A stretch of DNA of 33,953 bases from a virus. Taxonomy: Duplodnaviria; Heunggongvirae; Uroviricota; Caudoviricetes. Below, in pieces: positions 983 through 32,328 of the stretch (position 1 is its first letter; each line of letters opens with the position of its first letter). Location: the IMG/VR virus record IMGVR_UViG_2534682338_000010, positions 1 to 33,953 of that record; one strand, written 5' to 3'. Below the pieces are notes generated by a model that worked only from the letters and a program-made list of their open reading frames with translations, was not told the origin of the DNA and did not search any database. Position numbers and translations under genes: made by a program.

Positions 983-1228
983 ATGAAAAAGATTATCGCT
1001 GGTATCGTTCTTGCTCTGGGTTTGGTTGGTGCTGCAAATGCCGAACAATATGTACAGGGTGATAGTGTCAAACGTGCTGCCGTTGCACCTTCTTTAAATC
1101 AACTGTGTACTGAATTAGCACAGGTTGCCGGAGTTGGTGACGATGACGACTTTATTACTGCGTGTGTATGGAGTCATATCGAGGATATTAATAAACGTGA
1201 TGCAAAACTAACTGGAAAGAAATATTAA
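983..1228 (+). CDS. small secreted/periplasmic protein with Sec signal peptide
   Basis: N-terminus MKKIIAGIVLALGLVGAANA followed by EQ (AxA cleavage motif, no lipobox Cys); AGAGGA SD 7 nt upstream of the ATG. Confidence 0.6.
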   Translation: MKKIIAGIVLALGLVGAANAEQYVQGDSVKRAAVAPSLNQLCTELAQVAGVGDDDDFITACVWSHIEDINKRDAKLTGKKY

Positions 1229-1244
1229 TGACTTACTAACCAAT

Positions 1245-1284
1245 GCCCCTATCGTTATAATACACGGTAGGGGCGTTTTTGTTT
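1245..1284 (+). terminator. rho-independent terminator
   Basis: 10-bp stem GCCCCTATCG / CGGTAGGGGC followed by GTTTTTGTTT. Confidence 0.6.
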
Positions 1285-1293
1285 GGAAATGGT

Positions 1294-2973
1294 ATGAAAA
1301 CTAAACTATATTCGTATATTCGCTTCTCGTCTATGCGTCAGAGTGATGGTTCGAGTTATGAACGACAAATCAGGATGGCGAGAGAGATTGCGGCAAAGTA
1401 TGACCTTGAACTGGTAAATGATTATCAGGATCTGGGTGTATCTGCGTTTAAGGGTGCTAACTCTAAAACAGGGGCGCTATCTCGTTTCCTTGATGCAATT
1501 GGTAGATCCGTTCCTGTTGGTAGCTGGCTATTCATTGAAAACTTGGACCGCTTATCCCGTGCCGATATTGTCAGTGCGCAGGAGTTATTCCTTTCAATCA
1601 TCCGTAGGGGAATAACCATTGTTACTGGCATGGATAACAAGATCTACTCGCTGGATACTGTTACCGCTAATCCGATGGACCTGATGTTCTCCATCCTTTT
1701 ATTCATCCGTGGTAATGAGGAAAGTCAGACTAAGCGCAATCGTACTAATTCAAGCGCACTGATTAAGATTAAAGCCCATCAAGAAAATCCCCAGAATCCG
1801 GCAGTGGCAATCGAGGAAGTTGGAAAGAATATGTGGTGGACGGATACCACTTCCGGTTATGTGCTGCCTCATCCGGTGTACTTCCCTGTTGTTCAGGATA
1901 TTGTGGAATTGCGGAAGAATGGACGTTCAACCGCCGAGATACTGGATCACCTTAACGAGACTTATACACCGCCACCAGCGGTTAGCAACAAGAAGCATTC
2001 AAAATGGTCACGGGCAATGGTTGAAAGGTTGTTTCATACCCGCGCTTTGATTGGTATCAAGGAGGTCTCTGTAGATGGCGTTAACTATGAGTTAAAGGAT
2101 TATTACCCTCGTGTTATTGATGACCCTACGTTCTATCACCTTAAGAAAAATATTGGTGCTAGAGCATGGAACTTTGGAGACAAGGAAGAAGTTAAACCGA
2201 TCCCCCTGCTTAGTGGTATTGGCCTATTGAAATGTGATCATTGCGGTTGCGCTATGGTTAAAGTGAAGGGAACGAACAAACGTTCTGACCAGTATCGTTA
2301 TACATGTGATGCGACCCGTTCACGTAGACTTGATTGCGAGCATCCAAACTGGAGTTTTCGAGGGGATCAATTAGAGAAAGCTGTATTGCAATTGCTGGCT
2401 GATAAAATCTGGATTGCTGAGGATAAGGCTAATCCGGTTCCGGCGTTGAAAGTACAGGTTGATGAAATATCACGCAAGATTGATAACCTGATTGCCCTTT
2501 CTGCTATGACAGGAGCAACGAAGGAGCTAGCCGATCAGATTACTACCCTCAATAGCGAGCGTGAAACACTCTACAATCAGATCAAGATGGCAGAAGAGGA
2601 AATGTATTCTGTGGACTCTCAAGGCTGGGAGAAGCTCGCAGAATTTGATTTAGAAGATGTTTATAACGAGGAACGACTAAAGGTCCGGTTTAAGATTAAG
2701 CAAGCTCTAAAGCGGATCGGGTGTAGCAGGATTGACAGAAACAAAAACTTGTTTGTACTGGAATACATCGATGGAAAGACCCAGAGAGTTGTAATAGAAA
2801 ATTCAAGAGGAACGAGGAAAGGCCGGATATTCATTGATTTGAAAACTATCAATGATAGACAGATTCTGGAAAGTAACGGGCTTGTTTTGCATCCATGTTT
2901 AGACATGCTGACAGATAAAGACTGGAAACCAGAAGAGGAAATACCAGGTCCATTACAGGAATTTGGAATTTAA
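1294..2973 (+). CDS. large serine recombinase (resolvase/invertase catalytic domain, recombinase domain, zinc ribbon, coiled coil)
   Basis: N-terminal YSYIRFSSMRQ (catalytic-Ser motif of serine recombinases); ENLDRLSR (conserved DRLGR-type motif); Cys cluster CDHCGC...YRYTC...CEH; 560 aa. Track start is TTG at 1279; ATG at 1294 preferred. Confidence 0.85.
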   Translation: MKTKLYSYIRFSSMRQSDGSSYERQIRMAREIAAKYDLELVNDYQDLGVSAFKGANSKTGALSRFLDAIGRSVPVGSWLFIENLDRLSRADIVSAQELFLSIIRRGITIVTGMDNKIYSLDTVTANPMDLMFSILLFIRGNEESQTKRNRTNSSALIKIKAHQENPQNPAVAIEEVGKNMWWTDTTSGYVLPHPVYFPVVQDIVELRKNGRSTAEILDHLNETYTPPPAVSNKKHSKWSRAMVERLFHTRALIGIKEVSVDGVNYELKDYYPRVIDDPTFYHLKKNIGARAWNFGDKEEVKPIPLLSGIGLLKCDHCGCAMVKVKGTNKRSDQYRYTCDATRSRRLDCEHPNWSFRGDQLEKAVLQLLADKIWIAEDKANPVPALKVQVDEISRKIDNLIALSAMTGATKELADQITTLNSERETLYNQIKMAEEEMYSVDSQGWEKLAEFDLEDVYNEERLKVRFKIKQALKRIGCSRIDRNKNLFVLEYIDGKTQRVVIENSRGTRKGRIFIDLKTINDRQILESNGLVLHPCLDMLTDKDWKPEEEIPGPLQEFGI

Positions 2974-3010
2974 GCGGCCTAAATCGACGTATAACGAGCT
3001 AAAACAGTTA

Positions 3011-3036
3011 AGGGGTACATTCGTACCCCTTTTTTA
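3011..3036 (+). terminator. rho-independent terminator
   Basis: stem AGGGGTAC / GTACCCCT with loop ATTC, then TTTTTT. Confidence 0.65.
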
Positions 3037-3241
3037 ATTTAATTGCATTAGGCAGCGTAAGCAAGTTTCATAGTAGTTTCCTCTAAAATAATAAGTTCAC
3101 TACTATTTATCAGAGAAAATTGTCTTACTATTGCATTCTCTATCTGGATGTGGGTATAGGCGGGATTGAATACGGCAAAACTGAAACATTCCACTACTGC
3201 AATAAATCACTAAACAATATAAAGAATATTGCAAGTGTGGA

Positions 3242-4741
3242 GTGGAACTAATGCAAGATATTAAAATTCATTTTCAAGATTACAGTTTCGTTAAGGTTGA
3301 TTGCTCTCCTTCTATCGGAATGGAATTAAGAGATTATTTCTCGTTTGAGGTTGAAGGGGCTAGGTTTAGCCCCCGTTACAAGTATTCTGGCTGGGATGGA
3401 CGAATAAGACTGTTTACGCATGAAAACACCCTACCAATTGGACTATTAAAAACGTTGGGTGTCTTTGTTAAAAATATGGGGTATTCAGTCTGGATTGACC
3501 CTAGATTGCTTGAGAAGGAAGATGTAACCAAAGACGCGATTAATGAATGGATTGATTCCTTAGAAGTGTATTCCGGTTCCAATAAAATCAATCCTTACTG
3601 GTATCAAAGGGAGGCAGTCTTTCAGGGTATTCATAATCGCCGTAGAATGCTGGTTCTTCCTACCAGTGCGGGTAAGTCATTGATTGCTTGTATGCTGTCT
3701 CGTTGGTACTTAGAGAACTACACCGGAAAAGTTCTAATCATTGTCCCTACTACATCGCTGGTGGTTCAAATGAGGGATGATTTTGTCGATTATAGGCTAT
3801 TCCCTTATGAAGCAATTCATACAATGATGAGTGGTAGCGGGAAACATCCGGGAGACAGGTTAATCACGGTTAGTACCTGGCAATCAGCTTGCAAGATGCC
3901 TCCTGAATGGTTCCGACAATATGGAATGTTGATAGTTGATGAATCACATAAGGCTAGTGCCAAAAATATTACCAATATCATTAACGGAATGAATCATTGT
4001 CAATTTAAGATCGGCATGACTGGTTCCCCGAAAGAATCAAAGTGCCATTTAATGCAGTATGTCGGGCTTTTCGGTGATATTTCTAAGATCGTGAGTATTG
4101 ACCGCCTGATGGAAGAAGGGCAGGTGACAAAACTGAAAATTAACTGTCTTTTCCTTCGTTATACCGATGAGGAATGTAGCGCGGTTAAGGGGAGAGAATA
4201 TGCGGAAGAGATCAAGTATATTACGTCTAACCCACGACGAAATAAGTTTGCTTGTAATTTGGCGCTAAAACTCGCTAAGAAGGGCGAAAACGTATTCCTG
4301 ATGTTCCGCAATACTAAGCACGGAAAACTTATGTATGATGCGTTACAGAAGGTACACGACAAGGTTTATTATATTGACGGTGGAGTTAAGACAGAAGAAC
4401 GTGATGAATTTAAGAAATTAGCGGAAGGGGAAACAGGGATCATTTGCGTTGCATCCTATGGTGTGTTCTCTACTGGTGTTTCAATTAAGAACTTGCACCA
4501 TGTTATTTTCGGTCATCCAGTGAAGGAATCAACTATCGTTCGTCAGAGTATCGGTCGTGCATTGCGTAAACATGGTTCTAAGGATATTGCAACGGTCTGG
4601 GATCTTATAGATCATCTGTGTATATTCGGTCGTAACGGAAAAGTCAAGCATAAAAATTATGCGGTAAAACATGCACTTGAGAGAATACGCTATTATCTAA
4701 CCGACAAGTTCAGCTATGCAACTAAAACAATTGCTATATAA
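3242..4741 (+). CDS. SF2 DExH helicase, UvsW-like (branch-migration/recombination helicase family)
   Basis: Walker A LPTSAGKS, motif II LIVDESH, motif VI QSIGRALRKHG; 499 aa; overall resemblance to T4 UvsW as recalled from memory. Confidence 0.8.
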   Translation: MELMQDIKIHFQDYSFVKVDCSPSIGMELRDYFSFEVEGARFSPRYKYSGWDGRIRLFTHENTLPIGLLKTLGVFVKNMGYSVWIDPRLLEKEDVTKDAINEWIDSLEVYSGSNKINPYWYQREAVFQGIHNRRRMLVLPTSAGKSLIACMLSRWYLENYTGKVLIIVPTTSLVVQMRDDFVDYRLFPYEAIHTMMSGSGKHPGDRLITVSTWQSACKMPPEWFRQYGMLIVDESHKASAKNITNIINGMNHCQFKIGMTGSPKESKCHLMQYVGLFGDISKIVSIDRLMEEGQVTKLKINCLFLRYTDEECSAVKGREYAEEIKYITSNPRRNKFACNLALKLAKKGENVFLMFRNTKHGKLMYDALQKVHDKVYYIDGGVKTEERDEFKKLAEGETGIICVASYGVFSTGVSIKNLHHVIFGHPVKESTIVRQSIGRALRKHGSKDIATVWDLIDHLCIFGRNGKVKHKNYAVKHALERIRYYLTDKFSYATKTIAI

Positions 4742-4742
4742 C

Positions 4743-4770
4743 AAAAAAGCGCCCACTAGAGGCGCTTTAA
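4743..4770. terminator. bidirectional intrinsic terminator between convergent helicase and endolysin genes
   Basis: stem AGCGCC / GGCGCT flanked by an A-run on one side and a T-rich run on the other. Confidence 0.55.
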
Positions 4771-15449: not shown

Positions 15450-15956
15450 TTAAGAGATTTTCAAAGTCTGCTTAGTGCCAGTCTTCTTAATGTTGGTAAG
15501 GAAAGCAGCCGGAGGATTGCTTAACCAGTAGTAATGAAAACCACTTTGCATACTGTTATAAGGAACAGTGACAGCAGCACCACCCAAATTAACGGTTATA
15601 TTCCCCGCTCTACCATTCTGGAGATATACAGCCATAGTAGGAGTACCACCATTGAATTGACCAACGATAACGCCAATCAGACGCCCTACGCCCACGTTTT
15701 CGGGGTTCTCCATAGATCCTTTACCGCGCATGTCAGTTACTGGATAGTTTGAAGCAGTTACACCCCAGTTATTACCCAATGAAGTAGACCACGCAGCAGT
15801 AGCTACAACCGTATCCATACCACGACCACACATCGCACTCATGTTAGCTGGGCGACTAACCTTTAATGCGTTCATTGCTGCGCTCATCCATCGTTGACCA
15901 GTTACAGAAACAGCAGATGACCCGACCCAGCCAGGCTTATTAACGACATTCGCCAT
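15450..15956 (-). CDS. tail-associated structural protein (Gly/Asn-rich)
   Basis: 168-aa ORF; GGAG SD 8 nt upstream; follows the terminator after the putative tube gene. Confidence 0.5.
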   Translation of the reverse strand: MANVVNKPGWVGSSAVSVTGQRWMSAAMNALKVSRPANMSAMCGRGMDTVVATAAWSTSLGNNWGVTASNYPVTDMRGKGSMENPENVGVGRLIGVIVGQFNGGTPTMAVYLQNGRAGNITVNLGGAAVTVPYNSMQSGFHYYWLSNPPAAFLTNIKKTGTKQTLKIS

Positions 15957-16657: not shown

Positions 16658-19600
16658 TTATTTAGTTGCTTTCAGTTCGGCTAATTCAGCTTTAGTTTCG
16701 GCAAGTTCTTTAGCCATAGCATCAAACTTAGCGGTCATTTCCTGCATTGCTTTGATGATTAAAGCATTGACAGCAGAGTTAGAAATAGTCTTGATTGCTT
16801 CTGGATGTTCTGGATCTTCGGTGGATTGAATACCTACTGCTTCCGGCAATACTTTTTCCAGATCCTGAGCAATAATACCTACTTCGCGTTTAATCACCGT
16901 GTCATCGGAAAGAGATTTAACTTTATCGTAGGTGTAGACTTTCAGTGAGTTTACTTTCTCTAATGCGCCGTCCTGTAATTCTTCCTTGTTAATTTTCAAA
17001 CGGGAGTCGGAGCGAATGTAAACATCGTTAAACGAACCGTTACGACCTGCGGTAAAGTCACCAGCAGCGTTAAAGTCAAAAGTTGCATCGTGTACGTGCA
17101 TACGCACCATAGCATTTCCGATAGTACCGCTAGGAACATGTACACCCATTGCTGCGATATGATATTTACCTTGATGGGTTGCTTTCCATACGTTATGAGC
17201 GGAATCGGTTGATTGTTGACAGTCGACCTGAATACCAGAAGCACGATCACGCCAGCTAGTCCAACTACCGCCAGCAACAGAACCACGAATCAGACCATTA
17301 CCGCCACCGGAAACAGTACCCGTTTCAAGTTGAATCATCTTACCGCCGAATTTCCAGACTTCGGTTTGTTTCTCACCGCGCATACGCATAACGCCAGCAT
17401 CATCGCAGTACAACAGACCCAATTCTAAGCCATTTGGATCTCTAAACCACAAATGCTTATTGCCACTGCGACGAAACTCAATATCAGCACCGTTAAGCGT
17501 GATATTACCGCCAGTGTGAATTGCTTTAGGTTTAACAGTACCGTTGATGGCAAACTCGATTAATTCAGTACCCGGACCGCCCGGTCGTTGTGTGTACCAG
17601 TGCCAACCGCTTTCGTCCGCACATTCGAATACTTGTTTACGAGCATCAGCACCCCACGCACGGATATTAAAGCTAGAAGTAGCTGTATTTTTGCCCCACG
17701 TTAATTTTCCTTCGGTAGTTAAATCCCCTCGGAAATGAGCAAGTAAGCCACCAGTACCGTTACGTTCTGTAGTAAAGTGAGTTCCGCTAGTGTCCTGGAA
17801 TTGCAAAACGTTATATCGATTGGCATTACTATTCCCCCAATGGTTAATCGTAAAAGAATCCATCGACTGATTTCCACCAGCAGAGAAAGTAAGCAGTCCT
17901 TTTTCTAAGAATACATTGTTGCTAAAACGGGCAGCACGGCTATCTCTTTCAAGAACTAATGCACCTTCGTTACCATCACCGCCTAAAGTAACTTTACCGT
18001 TAGTCAAATCGTAAATGAACGGTCTGTTTCCATTCCATCCGCCCAATTTATCATTTTCGGCAGTAGAAAGAAGATAAACTTTACCACCGTCATTACGCCA
18101 GAATGCACCATAATTACCGTAGATCATGCGGTAGGCGTCGCTATTCATTGAGATGAATTGAGCGTTAGTATAAACTCGTTTTGTGTTACCGGTTGCAAGT
18201 TCGATCTGTCCGTCGATGTGGTGACGAATAGAAGTACCACCTACATCACTATACCATTCAAAAACGTTAGTATCAGCATTACCATAACCGATCCACCCTT
18301 GACGGGTAATAGATCCAGTACGATTATCTTGAAACGCAATATGGTTGGATTGACCAGCAGGACGCCGCAAGGTAATAACATTACTACCTCCACCCAACAT
18401 CATTCGACCAGAAAGAATATTACCTTTATGAGTCCCAGCAATAGAGCTACTAGATTCAACGGATAGAATCTCCTGAGCATCTGTACTACCCGTGGCGAGT
18501 CGATAAGTAGAACCCTGAACCGTCTCATGCCAGATCATTTCGTTATAGTTGCTACGGAATTTACGAATATATTTTCGTCCAGTACCTCTATCATTGCTTA
18601 GATGAACAATGTCATAGCTGTTTTGTGTATTGTCGTCAAAACTCAACACACCACGTTTATTTTCTGTGTTAAAAAGAGTTACGTTGCGACCACCGATAAC
18701 ACCAACGGAAGGTTTAATTAACGTGGCTTCCGGCGTATCATAAACCGTCAAACTTACATAAACAGATTTCCCATATTCGACAATGACGTTATCGGTATAA
18801 CGCTGATATTTCACGTAGATATCATAGTTATCACCGGAAGTATTGACAGCAAATACCTCAAAATCTTTGTTTGTATTTCTACGGTATGCAATTACGTTAA
18901 GACCTTTAGGTCTATCGTTACCACTACGGAGAAGAATTTCTACTACATCAACTTGGTCATATGCCGTAACGTTGTAACCATTACCACCATGAATACGGAA
19001 AAACACACTACGCCCGTTTTGTGGAATTGTTGCGGTTGCCAATTTGAAATATGCAGATACGTTTTCGCTAGAATTGGGAACAGACATAACGACGTTTTTA
19101 ACAAACATCTTATCAACTTCGGCTTTGGTGTATGCACCAATCTCGCCAGGAGTCGGCTTATCACCTTCGTGATACATCTTATAGCTAAAGTTCTTCTGTC
19201 CTTCTCTATCAAAACCATAGGTTTCAACACGAGATCCACCAGACGCATAACGGAAAGTAAATCCGCGACCGTGCGCTTTACCGGCAGAGTGAGGAACGTT
19301 AAGAGTTAGATCCATGAGTCCATCTTGACCATTGGTACGGAAAGCACCAAAGTAGTTAAGATCTCTCGCTGTCTGGTCTTCCAAATAGTTAGCTGTTTTG
19401 GTTAACAGATAGCCGTGATGGTAAGTGTTGGTATTCTTCTTGATGTAAGCAGCATCGGCACTACCTTCAATAGAATCAATTCGCTGGTTAGCTGCGGCAA
19501 TTGCGGCATCAGTAGAAGATTTATTCTGGTCTACCTTGTTGTTAATTGCTGTATGGTTGCTATTAACTGTCCCCGTAAGATTGGTGATCTTCGTGTCGGC

Positions 19601-20194
19601 ATCTTTCTTATTATCCGCTACCGTCTTTTCTATTGCTGATTTATTTGCTTCGACAGTATTCGTTAAGTTGGTAACGTTGGTATTCGTCTGATCAACCCGC
19701 GCATTAATATCTGTCTTGTTCTTGTTAATTGTCGCGTTGATAGTATCGCGGGTTGAAGTAATAGTCTGATTCAGTTCAGTCTTAGCAGCCGCCAGAGCGT
19801 TAGCAGCTTCGGTTTTATTGTTACCTACTGTGGTAGTCAAAGCATCAATTCGTTTGTTGGCTGCGGTATCGCCAGCAGTGATTGAAGCATTGAGAGTATC
19901 ACGGGTAGAAGTGATAGTCTGATTCAGTTCAGCTTTAGCACTAGCCAGATTATTAGCGGCTTCTTGTTTGTTGGAAGCAATAACACGGTCAGTGCTAGTT
20001 TTGTTATTGTCTACTTTCGTATTCAGTTCAGCGTGTTTTTCTGGAGAAACACTAATTTGGACTACGTTATTATTTTTGTCTTTGGTGTAAATCACATGAT
20101 CCGCCAACTGTAAGGCGATTTCACCCTGTGATAATTGTTCCGGCGTTGGTTTTTTACCCGCCGTCTGTGTGCGTTTAAATTGGATCGACTGCAT
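16658..20194 (-). CDS. fibre protein with coiled-coil repeat shaft and C-terminal intramolecular chaperone (S74-like autoproteolytic) domain
   Basis: 1178 aa; N-terminal repeated NQTITSTRDT-type heptad units; C-terminal DSRLKINKEEL...VYTYDK...GIIAQDLEKVLPEAV typical of self-cleaving fibre chaperone domains. Confidence 0.75.
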   Translation of the reverse strand: MQSIQFKRTQTAGKKPTPEQLSQGEIALQLADHVIYTKDKNNNVVQISVSPEKHAELNTKVDNNKTSTDRVIASNKQEAANNLASAKAELNQTITSTRDTLNASITAGDTAANKRIDALTTTVGNNKTEAANALAAAKTELNQTITSTRDTINATINKNKTDINARVDQTNTNVTNLTNTVEANKSAIEKTVADNKKDADTKITNLTGTVNSNHTAINNKVDQNKSSTDAAIAAANQRIDSIEGSADAAYIKKNTNTYHHGYLLTKTANYLEDQTARDLNYFGAFRTNGQDGLMDLTLNVPHSAGKAHGRGFTFRYASGGSRVETYGFDREGQKNFSYKMYHEGDKPTPGEIGAYTKAEVDKMFVKNVVMSVPNSSENVSAYFKLATATIPQNGRSVFFRIHGGNGYNVTAYDQVDVVEILLRSGNDRPKGLNVIAYRRNTNKDFEVFAVNTSGDNYDIYVKYQRYTDNVIVEYGKSVYVSLTVYDTPEATLIKPSVGVIGGRNVTLFNTENKRGVLSFDDNTQNSYDIVHLSNDRGTGRKYIRKFRSNYNEMIWHETVQGSTYRLATGSTDAQEILSVESSSSIAGTHKGNILSGRMMLGGGSNVITLRRPAGQSNHIAFQDNRTGSITRQGWIGYGNADTNVFEWYSDVGGTSIRHHIDGQIELATGNTKRVYTNAQFISMNSDAYRMIYGNYGAFWRNDGGKVYLLSTAENDKLGGWNGNRPFIYDLTNGKVTLGGDGNEGALVLERDSRAARFSNNVFLEKGLLTFSAGGNQSMDSFTINHWGNSNANRYNVLQFQDTSGTHFTTERNGTGGLLAHFRGDLTTEGKLTWGKNTATSSFNIRAWGADARKQVFECADESGWHWYTQRPGGPGTELIEFAINGTVKPKAIHTGGNITLNGADIEFRRSGNKHLWFRDPNGLELGLLYCDDAGVMRMRGEKQTEVWKFGGKMIQLETGTVSGGGNGLIRGSVAGGSWTSWRDRASGIQVDCQQSTDSAHNVWKATHQGKYHIAAMGVHVPSGTIGNAMVRMHVHDATFDFNAAGDFTAGRNGSFNDVYIRSDSRLKINKEELQDGALEKVNSLKVYTYDKVKSLSDDTVIKREVGIIAQDLEKVLPEAVGIQSTEDPEHPEAIKTISNSAVNALIIKAMQEMTAKFDAMAKELAETKAELAELKATK

Positions 20195-28135: not shown

Positions 28136-28741
28136 ATGCTAATTAATCAGCAACAAAGAGATGAATTAAAATTAGCCTTTTCTTGTTGTACCGATCATGA
28201 ATATCGTTTGCCAGTAAAACATAAGCACTTAAAGACTGATTACACAACATCCGGGTTTAGCCGTGAGGAAGCGAAAGAGATTTTAATAGAATTTTACCGT
28301 GATAATGGTTATACAGACGTTCACAACTTCTTTAAGAAACATAGAACATCACATACAGAGTTTCGGAGAGTCCGAGATTGGTTTGATTTTGATATCAAGC
28401 GTTATTATCGCATTGATGACGGTCCTATCTATCGGTTGCAGTGGAAGCCGATCCGAGAAGTGTTGAAACAGACAAGGGATAGTATGGCTGTCACAATGCC
28501 ACGTAACATAGCTTTTAAGAAAGGATATGGTGATACAAGGGAACTATTCGTTGAACTCGCTAACGTGAAGTACAGCCACTATTACAACGATCCTAAGTCC
28601 TTCTTTGAAGTGCTTCGCAAGGTTGATATTAGTCGGGGTACATATTATTCACGGTTGAAGAAGTACGGGATTAAGGCAGAGTTCTTTATGTCGGTTGACG
28701 ATGGAGAACTTTTTCCGATAAAATGTAAGTCCTCTAAATAA
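28136..28741 (+). CDS. hypothetical protein with C-terminal small DNA-binding (HTH-like) domain
   Basis: 201 aa; C-terminal segment ISRGTYYSRLKKYGIKAEF resembles the two small paralogs at 28777 and 32146. Confidence 0.6.
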   Translation: MLINQQQRDELKLAFSCCTDHEYRLPVKHKHLKTDYTTSGFSREEAKEILIEFYRDNGYTDVHNFFKKHRTSHTEFRRVRDWFDFDIKRYYRIDDGPIYRLQWKPIREVLKQTRDSMAVTMPRNIAFKKGYGDTRELFVELANVKYSHYYNDPKSFFEVLRKVDISRGTYYSRLKKYGIKAEFFMSVDDGELFPIKCKSSK

Positions 28742-28776
28742 AGGTGAACATTCACTTTAATTTGGAGAAAATGACT

Positions 28777-29004
28777 ATGACTACTAAAGCTACTCGCGGT
28801 CGTCCTGCCCGTTTTAACGCTGAACAGATGGCTGATATTGCCTACGCTTATTATACAGCGGATCGTGGTAAGGAAGCGAAAGAACAGATTCTTAGTGAAC
28901 ATGGGATTTCAATTGCCCAATTCTATAAGAATATGAAGAAGTTAGACATTAAATTCTATGTTCAGATCGGTGATGGTCAGATCGTAGAAGCAACAGGTTT
29001 TTGA
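28777..29004 (+). CDS. small DNA-binding protein (GRP/AT-hook-like N-terminus plus HTH-like core)
   Basis: MTTKATRGRPARFNAEQMADIAYAYY...; GGAG 9 nt upstream of this ATG; track ORF begins at an upstream GTG (28744). Confidence 0.55.
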   Translation: MTTKATRGRPARFNAEQMADIAYAYYTADRGKEAKEQILSEHGISIAQFYKNMKKLDIKFYVQIGDGQIVEATGF

Positions 29005-29151: not shown

Positions 29152-29967
29152 TTACAGTCCGAAGACTTCCAGTGATCCAACATTCTGACGGAGACGTTCA
29201 GCCGCTTTATTTTGAATCAGAATAGTGTTATTTGGCTGCGGTAGTTTAAGAGTTGCTTTCTGTTCTTCTTCCAAAACGCCCAATTCAACCAGCACCGGAA
29301 GCACATCAACAGTAAACTCAAGTTGGTAGTGAGCATTCATGCGGCAGAAAGACAGAGAAGAGTCATTAGCAACATACCCACACGGCTTGTTATTTTCATC
29401 ATAGACGCGCTCAATGTATCCAGCAGTACGCAAGGCCGTCAGTGCTTCTTTAACCTTCGTAGCGCCCTTTTTAGCGCCTAACAGACGCGTCATTGAATGG
29501 CTATCTACAGACTTACGAACATGAAGTTCAATCAGCTTTTTGTTTTCGCGAGTTTTCTTTAATGCCAGTTCGATCCAGTCTGTTTCTTCAAAGTCTGCAT
29601 ACGGGTTAACAGCTAAACGTTCCTGACGCAGTTTTTCATTTTCTTCTTTCAGTCGTTTCCATTCCTGAATAACAACCATTCGACGCTTAACATCGTAACC
29701 AGTAACAAGAGTCAGCGTAAGTTCTTCGTCAAGGTGATATTCGGTTTGTTCACGTCCATATTGGTCAAAAAAGATGCGTCCAAATTTGGACTCATCTAAT
29801 TCAAGAGAAGTAAGCATAGTTTTAATATCACGTTTAACATGCTTATGTTCTTTTCCGGTAAATTCAGCGATCTGACGGGAAGACATGGTCAGCGGTTTGG
29901 TGTTATCAACAACCAGAGACACGGAAGCAGTTTTAACAGCAGTATTCATAGTAGTAACAGTATTCAT
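29152..29967 (-). CDS. Rha-family phage regulatory protein
   Basis: N-terminal LTMSSRQIAEFTGKEHKHVKRDIKTM matches the conserved Rha motif; likely start at the first ATG of an 18-bp tandem duplication. Confidence 0.7.
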   Translation of the reverse strand: MNTVTTMNTAVKTASVSLVVDNTKPLTMSSRQIAEFTGKEHKHVKRDIKTMLTSLELDESKFGRIFFDQYGREQTEYHLDEELTLTLVTGYDVKRRMVVIQEWKRLKEENEKLRQERLAVNPYADFEETDWIELALKKTRENKKLIELHVRKSVDSHSMTRLLGAKKGATKVKEALTALRTAGYIERVYDENNKPCGYVANDSSLSFCRMNAHYQLEFTVDVLPVLVELGVLEEEQKATLKLPQPNNTILIQNKAAERLRQNVGSLEVFGL

Positions 29968-29976
29968 AGTAGTAAT
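29941..29976. repeat. perfect-but-one 18-bp tandem duplication at the start of the Rha gene
   Basis: AGTATTCATAGTAGTAAC followed by AGTATTCATAGTAGTAAT; encodes MNTVTT-MNT on the minus strand. Confidence 0.8.
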
Positions 29977-30063
29977 TCCCCTTAAACGGTTTTGCGATAA
30001 TGATATTGGTCCTCCTAGTTCCGGCATCACCACCGGAACAATTTTATTTATAATAGAAATTTA

Positions 30064-30985: not shown

Positions 30986-31388
30986 AGTGGAAATCCTCTA
31001 AAAGAAAGTGAATCAAAGTAATTCTGATATTATTTATAAGAGAAAATTCTTGATGATTTTGGAAGGGATTGTTACTCACTTCGTTCGTTTACTAGAATCA
31101 GTTATCATCTGGTATTAAATCCCTTTCTAAGAAAATCCTTTCAAAAGTGATTCTCGATGCCACGCAGTGGCGTCGCAGACGTTTGGGAGTGAGCGAAGCG
31201 AGCGAGCAAACTAGTTAATTCCTTCTAAGATCATCTAGTTTAAATTAGTGTTACTAGAAGTAATTGGTTAGCGCTTCGCGCAGTCGGGCTACGCCCTCCT
31301 AATATCTTTTTGGTTATTTGTTGTTTTTGGTTTTACACATGAGCGTAGCGAATGTGTTATATAATATCTATGCACGCCCGATTCCCCG

Positions 31389-31630
31389 TTTTGCCCCTCA
31401 CTAAGTTAATGTTTTATAAAGAGTTTTTCTCACAAATCCTTTTCGGGGGCAAATTTCAGGGGCAAAAATTAGATTTTCAGGGGCAATTATTGGCATTTCA
31501 GGGGCAAAAATGAGGGGCAAAATCACTGTTTCCCAGAATTTCAGGGGCAAAAATAGTAGGTTTCAGGGGCAAAAATGGGATGTGGAATCTAGGGGATTTT
31601 GGTTCAGGGGCAAAATTCGGGGGCAATTTT
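31389..31630 (+). repeat. iteron-like array: 9 direct copies and 1 inverted copy of GGGGCAA(A/T)
   Basis: direct copies starting at 31445, 31459, 31480, 31501, 31514, 31544, 31566, 31607, 31619; inverted copy at 31389-31397; several have the extended form TTTCAGGGGCAAAAAT. Confidence 0.8.
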
Positions 31631-31667
31631 CATAGTGTAGGGCTAGTGTAGGTTTGAAAATCCTTTG

Positions 31668-32145: not shown

Positions 32146-32328
32146 ATGGCACGACCTGTTAAGTTCACTCGCGAAATCATCTTAGAAATGGCTAAACGCT
32201 ACTTTGAGTTAACGCCGGGTGTGAGAATTGAAGAGTGGTTTAAAAATGAGGGCATCGATAAATCAACCTTTCATAAACTGCTAAAACGATATGACATTAA
32301 AGTGAAGATTGAAGCTACCGTTTGGTAA
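32146..32328 (+). CDS. small DNA-binding protein (paralog of the 28777 gene)
   Basis: 60 aa MARPVKFTREIILEMAKRYFELTPGV...; AGGAGGA SD 6 nt upstream. Confidence 0.65.
   Translation: MARPVKFTREIILEMAKRYFELTPGVRIEEWFKNEGIDKSTFHKLLKRYDIKVKIEATVW

Follow-up and report, generated by a model that had tools for sequence, protein, structure and literature searches.

A large serine integrase at the edge of an uncharacterised Escherichia coli prophage family and its deduced attachment sites

The DNA analysed here is the virus record IMGVR_UViG_2534682338_000010 of IMG/VR over its whole length of 33,953 nucleotides (nt), hereafter the window, which is assigned to the Caudoviricetes and carries close to its left end a gene for a large serine recombinase, termed int. 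The gene is flanked by two hairpins, each followed by a T-run, and lies between three small genes on its left and a gene for a UvsW-type helicase on its right (Table 1). A preliminary description made from the sequence alone treated int as a single-gene unit insulated by terminators, and considered for its product the roles of a temperate-phage integrase, a concatemer-resolution or inversion enzyme, and a self-contained mobile insertion. The first of these is now strongly supported by prophage junctions in E. coli, Salmonella and Edwardsiella: the product of int is very probably the large serine integrase with which a temperate, lambda-like prophage of the siphovirus type integrates in E. coli. 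The oddity of a lone serine recombinase beside T4-type genes would thereby resolve into a normal integrase at a prophage edge.

Table 1 Features of the int locus and attachment sites of the prophage. Positions refer to the window; aa, amino acids; AF2, AlphaFold2.
Feature	Positions	Strand	Sequence or remark	Basis
Three small left-end genes between attL and int	1-273, 286-672, 983-1228	+	unknown function	PHROGs 6147 and 14908
Upstream hairpin and T-run, terminator-like	1242-1284	+	loop TATAAT at 1257-1262	scan and fold
Translation initiation region	1285-1293	+	GGAAATGGT; 3-nt GGA Shine-Dalgarno match only	read from sequence
int, 559-aa large serine integrase	1294-2973 (including stop codon)	+		open reading frame, Pfam, PHROG, alignment, model
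Catalytic resolvase-type domain (aa 1-125) and long alpha-E helix (aa 127-164)	1294-1785	+		Pfam, conserved columns, AF2 model
Recombinase domain (aa 196-292) and zinc ribbon domain (aa 312-372)	1879-2409	+	C314, C317, C338, C348	Pfam, alignment, model
Coiled-coil motif (aa 382-436)	2437-2601	+		model helices, alignment with SprA and A118
C-terminal beta-rich domain (aa 460-540)	2671-2913	+	role unassigned	AF2 model
Downstream hairpin and T-run, terminator-like	3010-3037	+		scan and fold
UvsW-type helicase gene, variable cargo, outside the integrase unit	3242-4741	+		Pfam UvsW_N 2.1e-34
attB (ycdX)			...CATATTTGGGA-TT-TCCGGGATGGC...	K-12 empty site
attL (ycdX)			...CATATTTGGGA-TT-CCCTAATATCATGTACCCACAATAACAC...	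prophage junction
attR (ycdX)			...GTGTTATTGGGGGTTGACTACGTTCGGG-TT-TCCGGGATGGC...	prophage junction
attP, ~58 bp			GTGTTATTGGGGGTTGACTACGTTCGGG-TT-CCCTAATATCATGTACCCACAATAACAC	reconstructed
attP junction expected from the excised form			GGTTGACTACGTTCGGGTTCCCTAATATCATGTACCC	
Repaired ycdX junction expected after excision			TTTGGGATTTCCGGGATGG	

The longest open reading frame (ORF) in the interval singled out by the preliminary description extends over positions 1279-2973 from a TTG codon and would encode 564 aa. The ATG at 1294, which gives 559 aa, was taken as the start because RefSeq relatives are annotated accordingly and M1 is near-invariant in an alignment of 32 homologues that extends down to ~27% identity. 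When scanned at full length, the product matches the Pfam families Recombinase (PF07508, 1.4e-8) and Zn_ribbon_recom (PF13408, 1.1e-10), and it matches PHROG 95 'integrase' with 1.5e-62. The Pfam Resolvase family is absent from the full-length scan of the 559 aa at E <= 0.01; it is found at 2.3e-15 (57 bits, cutoff 23) when aa 1-170 are scanned alone, and the domain is on record for the identical protein from GCA_000190855.1. As a caution of method, a missing catalytic-domain hit in a full-length Pfam scan is not to be taken at face value. The key residues of the catalytic domain are R10, S12, D85, R86 and R89, including the motif D85-R86-x-x-R89. In the alignment R10, D85, R86 and R89 are invariant, as are the four cysteines C314, C317, C338 and C348, and S12 is conserved in at least 90% of the sequences; a lack of conservation at the catalytic positions, which had been named as a possible sign against a functional recombinase, was thus not observed.

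The catalytic domain has an alpha/beta fold in the AF2 model and matches those of TP901-1 and 3guv, with aa 1-114 aligning with the latter. The recombinase and zinc ribbon domains that follow are the reading heads of the protein for the attachment (att) sites. In the AF2 model (predicted local distance difference test score, pLDDT, 81.5) two helices, 382-406 and 410-436, are capable of antiparallel packing and form a predicted coiled coil, and a profile search aligns this region with the coiled-coil region of the SPbeta SprA and A118 integrases. The relatives of the integrase keep a similar length of 557-562 aa, including the C-terminal beta-rich domain. A single-sequence search against solved structures returned only one weak match and a profile search was needed; the profile of the homologue alignment detects SPbeta SprA with 2e-19 and also the integrases of A118, phiC31 and TP901-1. 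Similarly, the top Foldseek matches are the complexes of full-length SPbeta and phiC31 integrases, with E values of 3.5e-16 to 4e-14, and the complex of the A118 large serine recombinase (LSR) with DNA, at 2e-8. The template modelling (TM) scores are low, at 0.2-0.37, which is expected for a flexible multi-domain protein. The protein therefore combines the catalytic domain, recombinase domain, four-Cys zinc ribbon, predicted coiled coil and fold of a large serine integrase, and the previous assignment, based on a catalytic Ser, a DRLSR-type motif, a zinc ribbon and a coiled coil, is borne out by Pfam, the alignment and the model. The size of ~180-200 aa, the C-terminal helix-turn-helix and the bracketing repeats that characterise the small serine resolvases and invertases are all lacking.

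Judging by its matches in host chromosomes, the window represents a prophage that is integrated within ycdX. Over the 8973 nt compared, the genome GCA_000190855.1 and the window are 100% identical, with the matching region located beside csgDEFG-ycdZ-ycdY-ycdX' and the same integrase protein encoded inside ycdX, and in NZ_AP027850.1 a complete prophage of ~36.9 kb splits ycdX into C-terminal and N-terminal pseudogenes. The region is present in the chromosome of 60 of the 5426 complete E. coli genomes and never on a plasmid record; all 62 places where it occurs in complete genomes are chromosomal. The search for prophage forms proposed in the preliminary description was therefore productive, with junctions in ycdX and in a second gene, hicB, in about 49 or more complete E. 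coli genomes and also in Salmonella and Edwardsiella. The attL junction with ycdX occurs in at least 27 complete genomes and that with hicB in at least 22, and the attR junction with ycdX in at least 23. The backbone of the window is of the lambda type, with terminase, portal, capsid, tail tube, tape measure and tail tip genes, and the structural and lysis genes are of full length. Likeness to isolated phages at the DNA level is restricted to two stretches, uvsW and the distal long-tail-fibre gene. Close relatives of the large terminase are lacking among 50,697 phage records (best match 43%), and no isolated phage in this collection has this enzyme or this phage backbone.

In the window ORFs that were scanned against Pfam and PHROG, neither a tyrosine integrase nor a repressor family, nor any other recombinase family, was detected, and none of these is annotated in the RefSeq relatives. 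The only regulator found in the window is Rha/Ant-like (29152-30033), and a lambda-type lysogeny module, that is a tyrosine integrase with an excisionase and a CI/Cro-type switch, was not observed. That no repressor or other lysogeny module is visible near int had been remarked before and holds, as far as recognisable families are concerned, for repressors in the entire window; the absence of such a module nearby is not anomalous, because int is found where an integrase gene is canonically expected, ~1.3 kb inside the prophage end. No Rfam family was matched anywhere in the window.

The attP and attB sites were derived by aligning both prophage junctions with the uninterrupted ycdX of K-12. 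The host site, ...TTTGGGA-TT-TCCGGGATGG..., is located at about nt 400 of the 738 nt of ycdX, and the dinucleotide TT is all that the four att sites at ycdX have in common. Such a TT-only junction is the signature of the 2-bp staggered cut made by serine recombinases; the staggered cleavage of large serine integrases requires a 2-bp non-palindromic core. In attP, two 28-bp arms surround the non-palindromic TT and match as inverted repeats at 19 of 28 positions, with near-perfect symmetry in the outer motif ACCC(C/A)CAATAACAC. The attL crossover falls outside the window, 41-42 nt before its position 1, in agreement with the earlier statement that the attachment site could not be identified from the window, and a search for att-like sequence inside the window found none. 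The search for att-like inverted repeats around int that had been proposed likewise found none; the search for repeats around the gene returned only short matches at chance level and no direct or inverted repeats bracket it. The start of int is ~1.3 kb from attL in E. coli and 228 nt from a truncated ycdX-like gene in Edwardsiella, and in every relative examined, from three genera, the gene has the same position, one to four genes from attL. A pair of short att sites with inverted half-sites and a 2-bp crossover, and a recombinase gene adjoining the att site at the end of the element, both expected of an integrase, are thus present.

It is very improbable that the enzyme serves in resolution or inversion rather than integration, be it the resolution of concatemers or dimers or the switching of tail fibres. 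The product has a weak secondary match to PHROG 125 'DNA invertase' (aa 2-254, 3.2e-11) and the phage does carry T-even-type gp37/gp38 fibre genes; in some other phages fibre genes are inverted by small serine invertases. Nevertheless, int encodes the full large-serine architecture and not a ~190-aa invertase with a C-terminal helix-turn-helix, no inverted repeats bracket a nearby segment, and the window has no att-like site. Either this role or that of a mobile insertion would call for repeats around the gene or for a variable location of it. In addition, the prophage junctions carry the 2-bp core of a serine enzyme, no other integrase was found, and the position of the gene is constant in the relatives, all of which speaks for the integrase reading over this earlier proposal.

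The second target of this phage type is the antitoxin gene hicB, inside which it is found in ~22 complete genomes. Comparison with K-12 hicB gives an attB of ...TTTAGGT-TT-GCCAATTCG..., with a shared core of TTGCC for one phage type and of TT for metagenomic relatives whose P' arm begins with CCC. The attP of the hicB type differs from that of the ycdX type at few positions, near the centre, and a third variant of attP diverges more strongly in the P arm. The window integrase is 98.9-99.5% identical to the ycdX-type enzymes and ~92-93% to those of the hicB type. Between the ycdX-type (n=3) and hicB-type (n=6) integrases there are 30 fixed differences, 28 of which fall within aa 196-351, a span that corresponds to the recombinase and zinc ribbon domains. 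Such an enzyme pair, 92% identical and with nearly identical attP but unrelated attB sites, would be a natural minimal pair for mapping or engineering attB specificity. At least one E. coli genome contains two copies of the prophage, which agrees with an independence of the two target specificities. Insertion of the prophage inactivates ycdX or shortens the antitoxin gene hicB and may affect the phenotype of the host. In the latter case hicB is cut at about nt 305 of its 417 nt, so that the antitoxin loses its C-terminal part and an N-terminal product of 116 aa remains (loci L007, 30752-31260, and L015/L018). In strain 14EC029, a lysogen at the hicB site, the adjacent toxin gene hicA is annotated as frameshifted.

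Among further relatives, those in Salmonella (71-76% identity) are likewise inserted in ycdX, as is one in Edwardsiella (60%), where int is the first gene past the junction, and a relative of 73% identity is located in a cytosine/purine-permease gene. More distant homologues (38%) in Enterobacter and Citrobacter (L028/L029) border a non-phage island that encodes a Gabija-like pair of a UvrD-like helicase and an AAA_15/21 ATPase; the sequence GGCTTGCCTAGCATACAAT, located ~80 nt before the start of int in these homologues, resembles the P' arm of the window phage. This integrase may be listed in one of the large computational catalogues available for such recombinases. No literature was found on ycdX or hicB as phage integration sites or on this enzyme and its sites, and the window protein and att core were not found in the supplements of a recombinase-mining study, the text of which is possibly incomplete (PMC10083194). 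The product of int is a previously uncharacterised large serine integrase, the gene of which is placed near a prophage end as is canonical for integrases. All four of its sites, attP, attB, attL and attR, are now defined for an uncharacterised prophage family that occupies ~1% of complete E. coli genomes and extends to Salmonella and Edwardsiella, and the enzyme adds a large serine integrase from Gram-negative bacteria with a defined attP of ~58 bp and attB of 40-50 bp.

By the established mechanism of the family, dimers of the integrase would bind attP and attB through their recombinase and zinc ribbon domains and synapse via the coiled coils, after which Ser12 would cut all four strands and subunit rotation would exchange the halves; excision would require a recombination directionality factor. 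Several negative results bear on whether this copy is active at present. Neither a directionality factor nor a repressor was identified in the scans of the window ORFs, there is no episomal copy among the complete genomes, and an intact attP, representing the excised or virion form, was not found in IMG/VR, JGI metagenome contigs or GTDB species genomes when scanned with an exact pattern of 37 nt with two degenerate positions. A shorter P'-arm pattern matched one IMG/VR contig, again a hicB attL junction. Two metagenome scaffolds of 35.8 and 37.5 kb were considered as free phage genomes and rejected, as both begin with hicB DNA and are prophages.

These findings would also suit an enzyme that is an integrase by descent but no longer mobilises its prophage, the latter being a fixed defective remnant, and insertions of IS1, IS2, IS3, IS5 or IS911 in several relatives, together with the lack of recognisable replication genes in scans of the window ORFs, point in the same direction. 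We nevertheless regard such a remnant as unlikely. The int reading frame is intact, and the 90% cluster of its closest homologue, which is 99% identical to the window protein, has 975 member sequences. Furthermore, many unrelated strains either have or lack the prophage at one identical dinucleotide, and two or three different sites are used, which requires recent integrations. At least one genome has two copies, and the structural and lysis genes of the window are of full length.

Among the solved structures, the best match in both sequence and fold is the SPbeta integrase SprA (YokA) of Bacillus subtilis, which has the same order of domains. The two enzymes are alike in integrating inside a host ORF, which is spsM for SprA. 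The direction of recombination by SprA is set by a separate factor, SprB (PMC5499854). The two enzymes are only 13-15% identical in the structural alignment and differ in host phylum and att sequences; an SprB-like factor is identified in SPbeta only, and there is no sign in the window prophage of excision being controlled by host development. The A118/LI, phiC31 and TP901-1 integrases share the catalytic, recombinase, zinc ribbon and coiled-coil parts with int as well as short att sites with inverted half-sites around a 2-bp crossover, attP being more symmetric than attB. Their sequences are distant, and int differs from them in its Gram-negative enterobacterial host and in an apparently extra C-terminal beta-rich domain (aa 460-540). 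In isolated phages the closest proteins are the YbcK-type large serine recombinases of lambdoid E. coli phages such as Perceval and DLP12 and the serine recombinases of Burkholderia phages Bcep22, Bcep176 and JC1, with 28-31% identity over 80-94% of the length, far below the 60-99% of the prophage-borne relatives. The ybcK genes have internal record coordinates in lambdoid phages, in what we take to be the nin region, and not the prophage-end position of int.

Both elements that flank int have the layout of intrinsic terminators, a G+C-rich hairpin directly followed by a T-run. The upstream hairpin (1242-1277) with its T-run folds with -23.4 kcal/mol (z -4.4) and the downstream one (3010-3031) with -14.6 kcal/mol (z -3.9), and the two strong terminators of the preliminary description are therefore present as terminator-like elements. 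The downstream stem folds on the minus strand too, and an 8-kb region contains 14 terminator-like sites compared to 6.2 +/- 2.6 in shuffled sequences. A conserved block starts exactly at the upstream hairpin and ends ~25 nt past the downstream one, with mosaic flanks on both sides. The upstream hairpin is invariant between the ycdX-type and hicB-type prophages, in contrast to the diverging sequence on its left, and the downstream hairpin is conserved in all E. coli types, mosaic divergence beginning ~25 nt beyond it. In Salmonella a hairpin and T-run also follow int, whereas the hairpin after int in Edwardsiella differs in sequence and has two small plus-strand genes beyond it. The upstream hairpin persists in both genera with altered stem pairs. 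When the Edwardsiella stem is compared with that of E. coli, two pairs are changed on both sides (T-A to G-C and A-T to C-G) and two changes are one-sided; this comparison is based on individual folds without pair counting, as the MAFFT alignment shifts the Edwardsiella 3' arm by one base. The loop varies from 6 to ~10 nt and contains TATAAT in every relative compared, the longest invariant run in the alignment. The ribosome-binding site of int, previously noted as weak, is indeed only a GGA at -9 to -7; the corresponding sequence is GAGG in Salmonella and GGAGGG in Edwardsiella, and the weakness is evidently not a conserved property.

Such an arrangement suggests, at a lower confidence than the integrase assignment, that int forms an expression cassette of its own. 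Transcription arriving from the att side would be halted by the upstream hairpin, and the TATAAT of its loop could be the -10 element of a weak promoter for int. Transcripts initiated there would begin in the 3' arm, lack the 5' arm of the stem and hence be unable to form the hairpin, and the unit would end at the downstream hairpin. A low autonomous expression of int would be harmless because the integrase alone cannot excise. The sprA gene of SPbeta is constitutively expressed in lysogens, where excision awaits the directionality factor, which fits an insulated, autonomous int unit (PMC5499854). Against such a cassette, the candidate -35 hexamers for the loop promoter match at only 3-4 of 6 bases, the promoter scan did not list the site, and the conservation of TATAAT may reflect the stability of the hairpin instead. 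In the hicB-type relatives ~270 nt separate the int stop codon from the shared downstream terminator (locus L004, 7233-7500). The insert opens with an ORF beginning MKMIKILGLILSMNSCLALA, which is signal-peptide-like and points to a small secreted-protein gene, and the 'single-gene unit' of the hicB type therefore contains two genes.

The mosaic breakpoints immediately outside both hairpins could also be taken to mean that the whole terminator-int-terminator unit is a small mobile cassette inserted into the phage, especially as the adjoining DNA is an insertion hotspot for uvsW, a GIY-YIG nuclease gene and the small secreted-protein gene. The constant position of int in all relatives examined from the three genera renders such an origin highly unlikely, as does the lack of direct, inverted or att-like repeats around the gene; the att site on which the enzyme acts is the boundary of the prophage. 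The synteny comparison proposed to see whether int is an indel gave the opposite result, since int is evidently the constant element and the neighbouring uvsW the indel.

The attachment region itself might contain a further transcription signal. A sigma-70-like match, TTGACT and TATCAT at a spacing of 17 nt (10 of 12 bases), spans the attP crossover; in neither phage type do attL, attR or attB contain it. It is the only plus-strand match that the promoter rule scan gave in the 714 nt around the reconstructed attP; in the third attP variant, TTTACA is found one base to the left. With its -35 element in the P arm and its -10 element in the P' arm, such a promoter would drive the left-end genes from unintegrated DNA only, and integration would break it by splitting attP. 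The conservation of the attP arms may stem from integrase binding, however, and does not count as independent evidence for a promoter. A precedent for transcription signals on the integrase side of an attachment region is provided by IntS of KplE1 and related autoregulated integrase genes, the promoters of which overlap attL and are repressed by the integrase together with the directionality factor (PMC2951348). These are tyrosine integrases with an attL promoter controlled by protein binding, whereas the promoter proposed here spans attP and would be split by recombination. The TATAAT-bearing hairpin loop and the attP-spanning match that integration would destroy are new features, both of which we infer from the sequence. 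A tentative and rather doubtful extension is that the int locus constitutes an integration-coupled transcription device, in which a promoter split at attP is combined with a weak constitutive int promoter in a terminator loop. If true, recombination itself would shut off the left-end operon, and the integrase would stay low in the lysogen independently of any repressor.

Among the genes around int, the left-end set varies between relatives, and the 81-aa product of 983-1228 has a signal-peptide-like start. The UvsW-like helicase previously recognised next to int is confirmed by its UvsW_N domain (Table 1). Its gene is ~84% identical in DNA to uvsW of Krischvirus (RB49-like) phages and is absent from the hicB-type and many ycdX-type prophages, and the distal long-tail-fibre gene (within 16658-20194) has 75-90% DNA identity to the same group, which suggests a recent exchange of genes between lytic T4-like and temperate E. 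coli phages. With a gp37-like distal tail fibre (about 16735-19411) and a gp38-like adhesin (15450-15956), UvsW forms a set of three T-even-type modules in the lambda-like backbone. In Salmonella relatives UvsY adjoins UvsW. Between the int terminator and uvsW of NZ_AP027850.1 (L001, 23049-24224) lie a gene for a 391-aa GIY-YIG nuclease and a 185-aa ORF, an insert found in many relatives and absent from the window; the DNA just past the int terminator looks like an insertion hotspot, possibly one that arose through homing. Between the convergent uvsW and endolysin genes a hairpin at 4746-4768 has T-runs on both strands, the layout of a bidirectional terminator.

Further to the right, about nine copies of TTTC(A/G)GGGGCAAA(A/T), mostly 21-22 nt apart, form an array at 31438-31641, with inverted copies at 31383-31400, in a stretch of ~1.1 kb that is devoid of a convincing gene. 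The array could be a replication origin or a binding array of the operator or partition type. Small proteins encoded at 28744-29004, 32146-32328 and 28136-28741 share the pattern (G)RPxKF...(F/Y)(H/Y)KxxKKxDIK and resemble stand-alone helix-turn-helix modules; they matched no Pfam or PHROG family and are candidate regulators or a candidate directionality factor. Just past the right end of the window, the last phage gene before attR (L002, 6741-7660) encodes a 183-aa protein that matches a terminase-small-subunit PHROG (6.7e-15); ~6 kb separate this gene from that of the large terminase. Some relatives have additional cargo between it and attR, such as an LprI-family lysozyme inhibitor, and host transcription of ghrA-ycdX would read into the attR end of the prophage.

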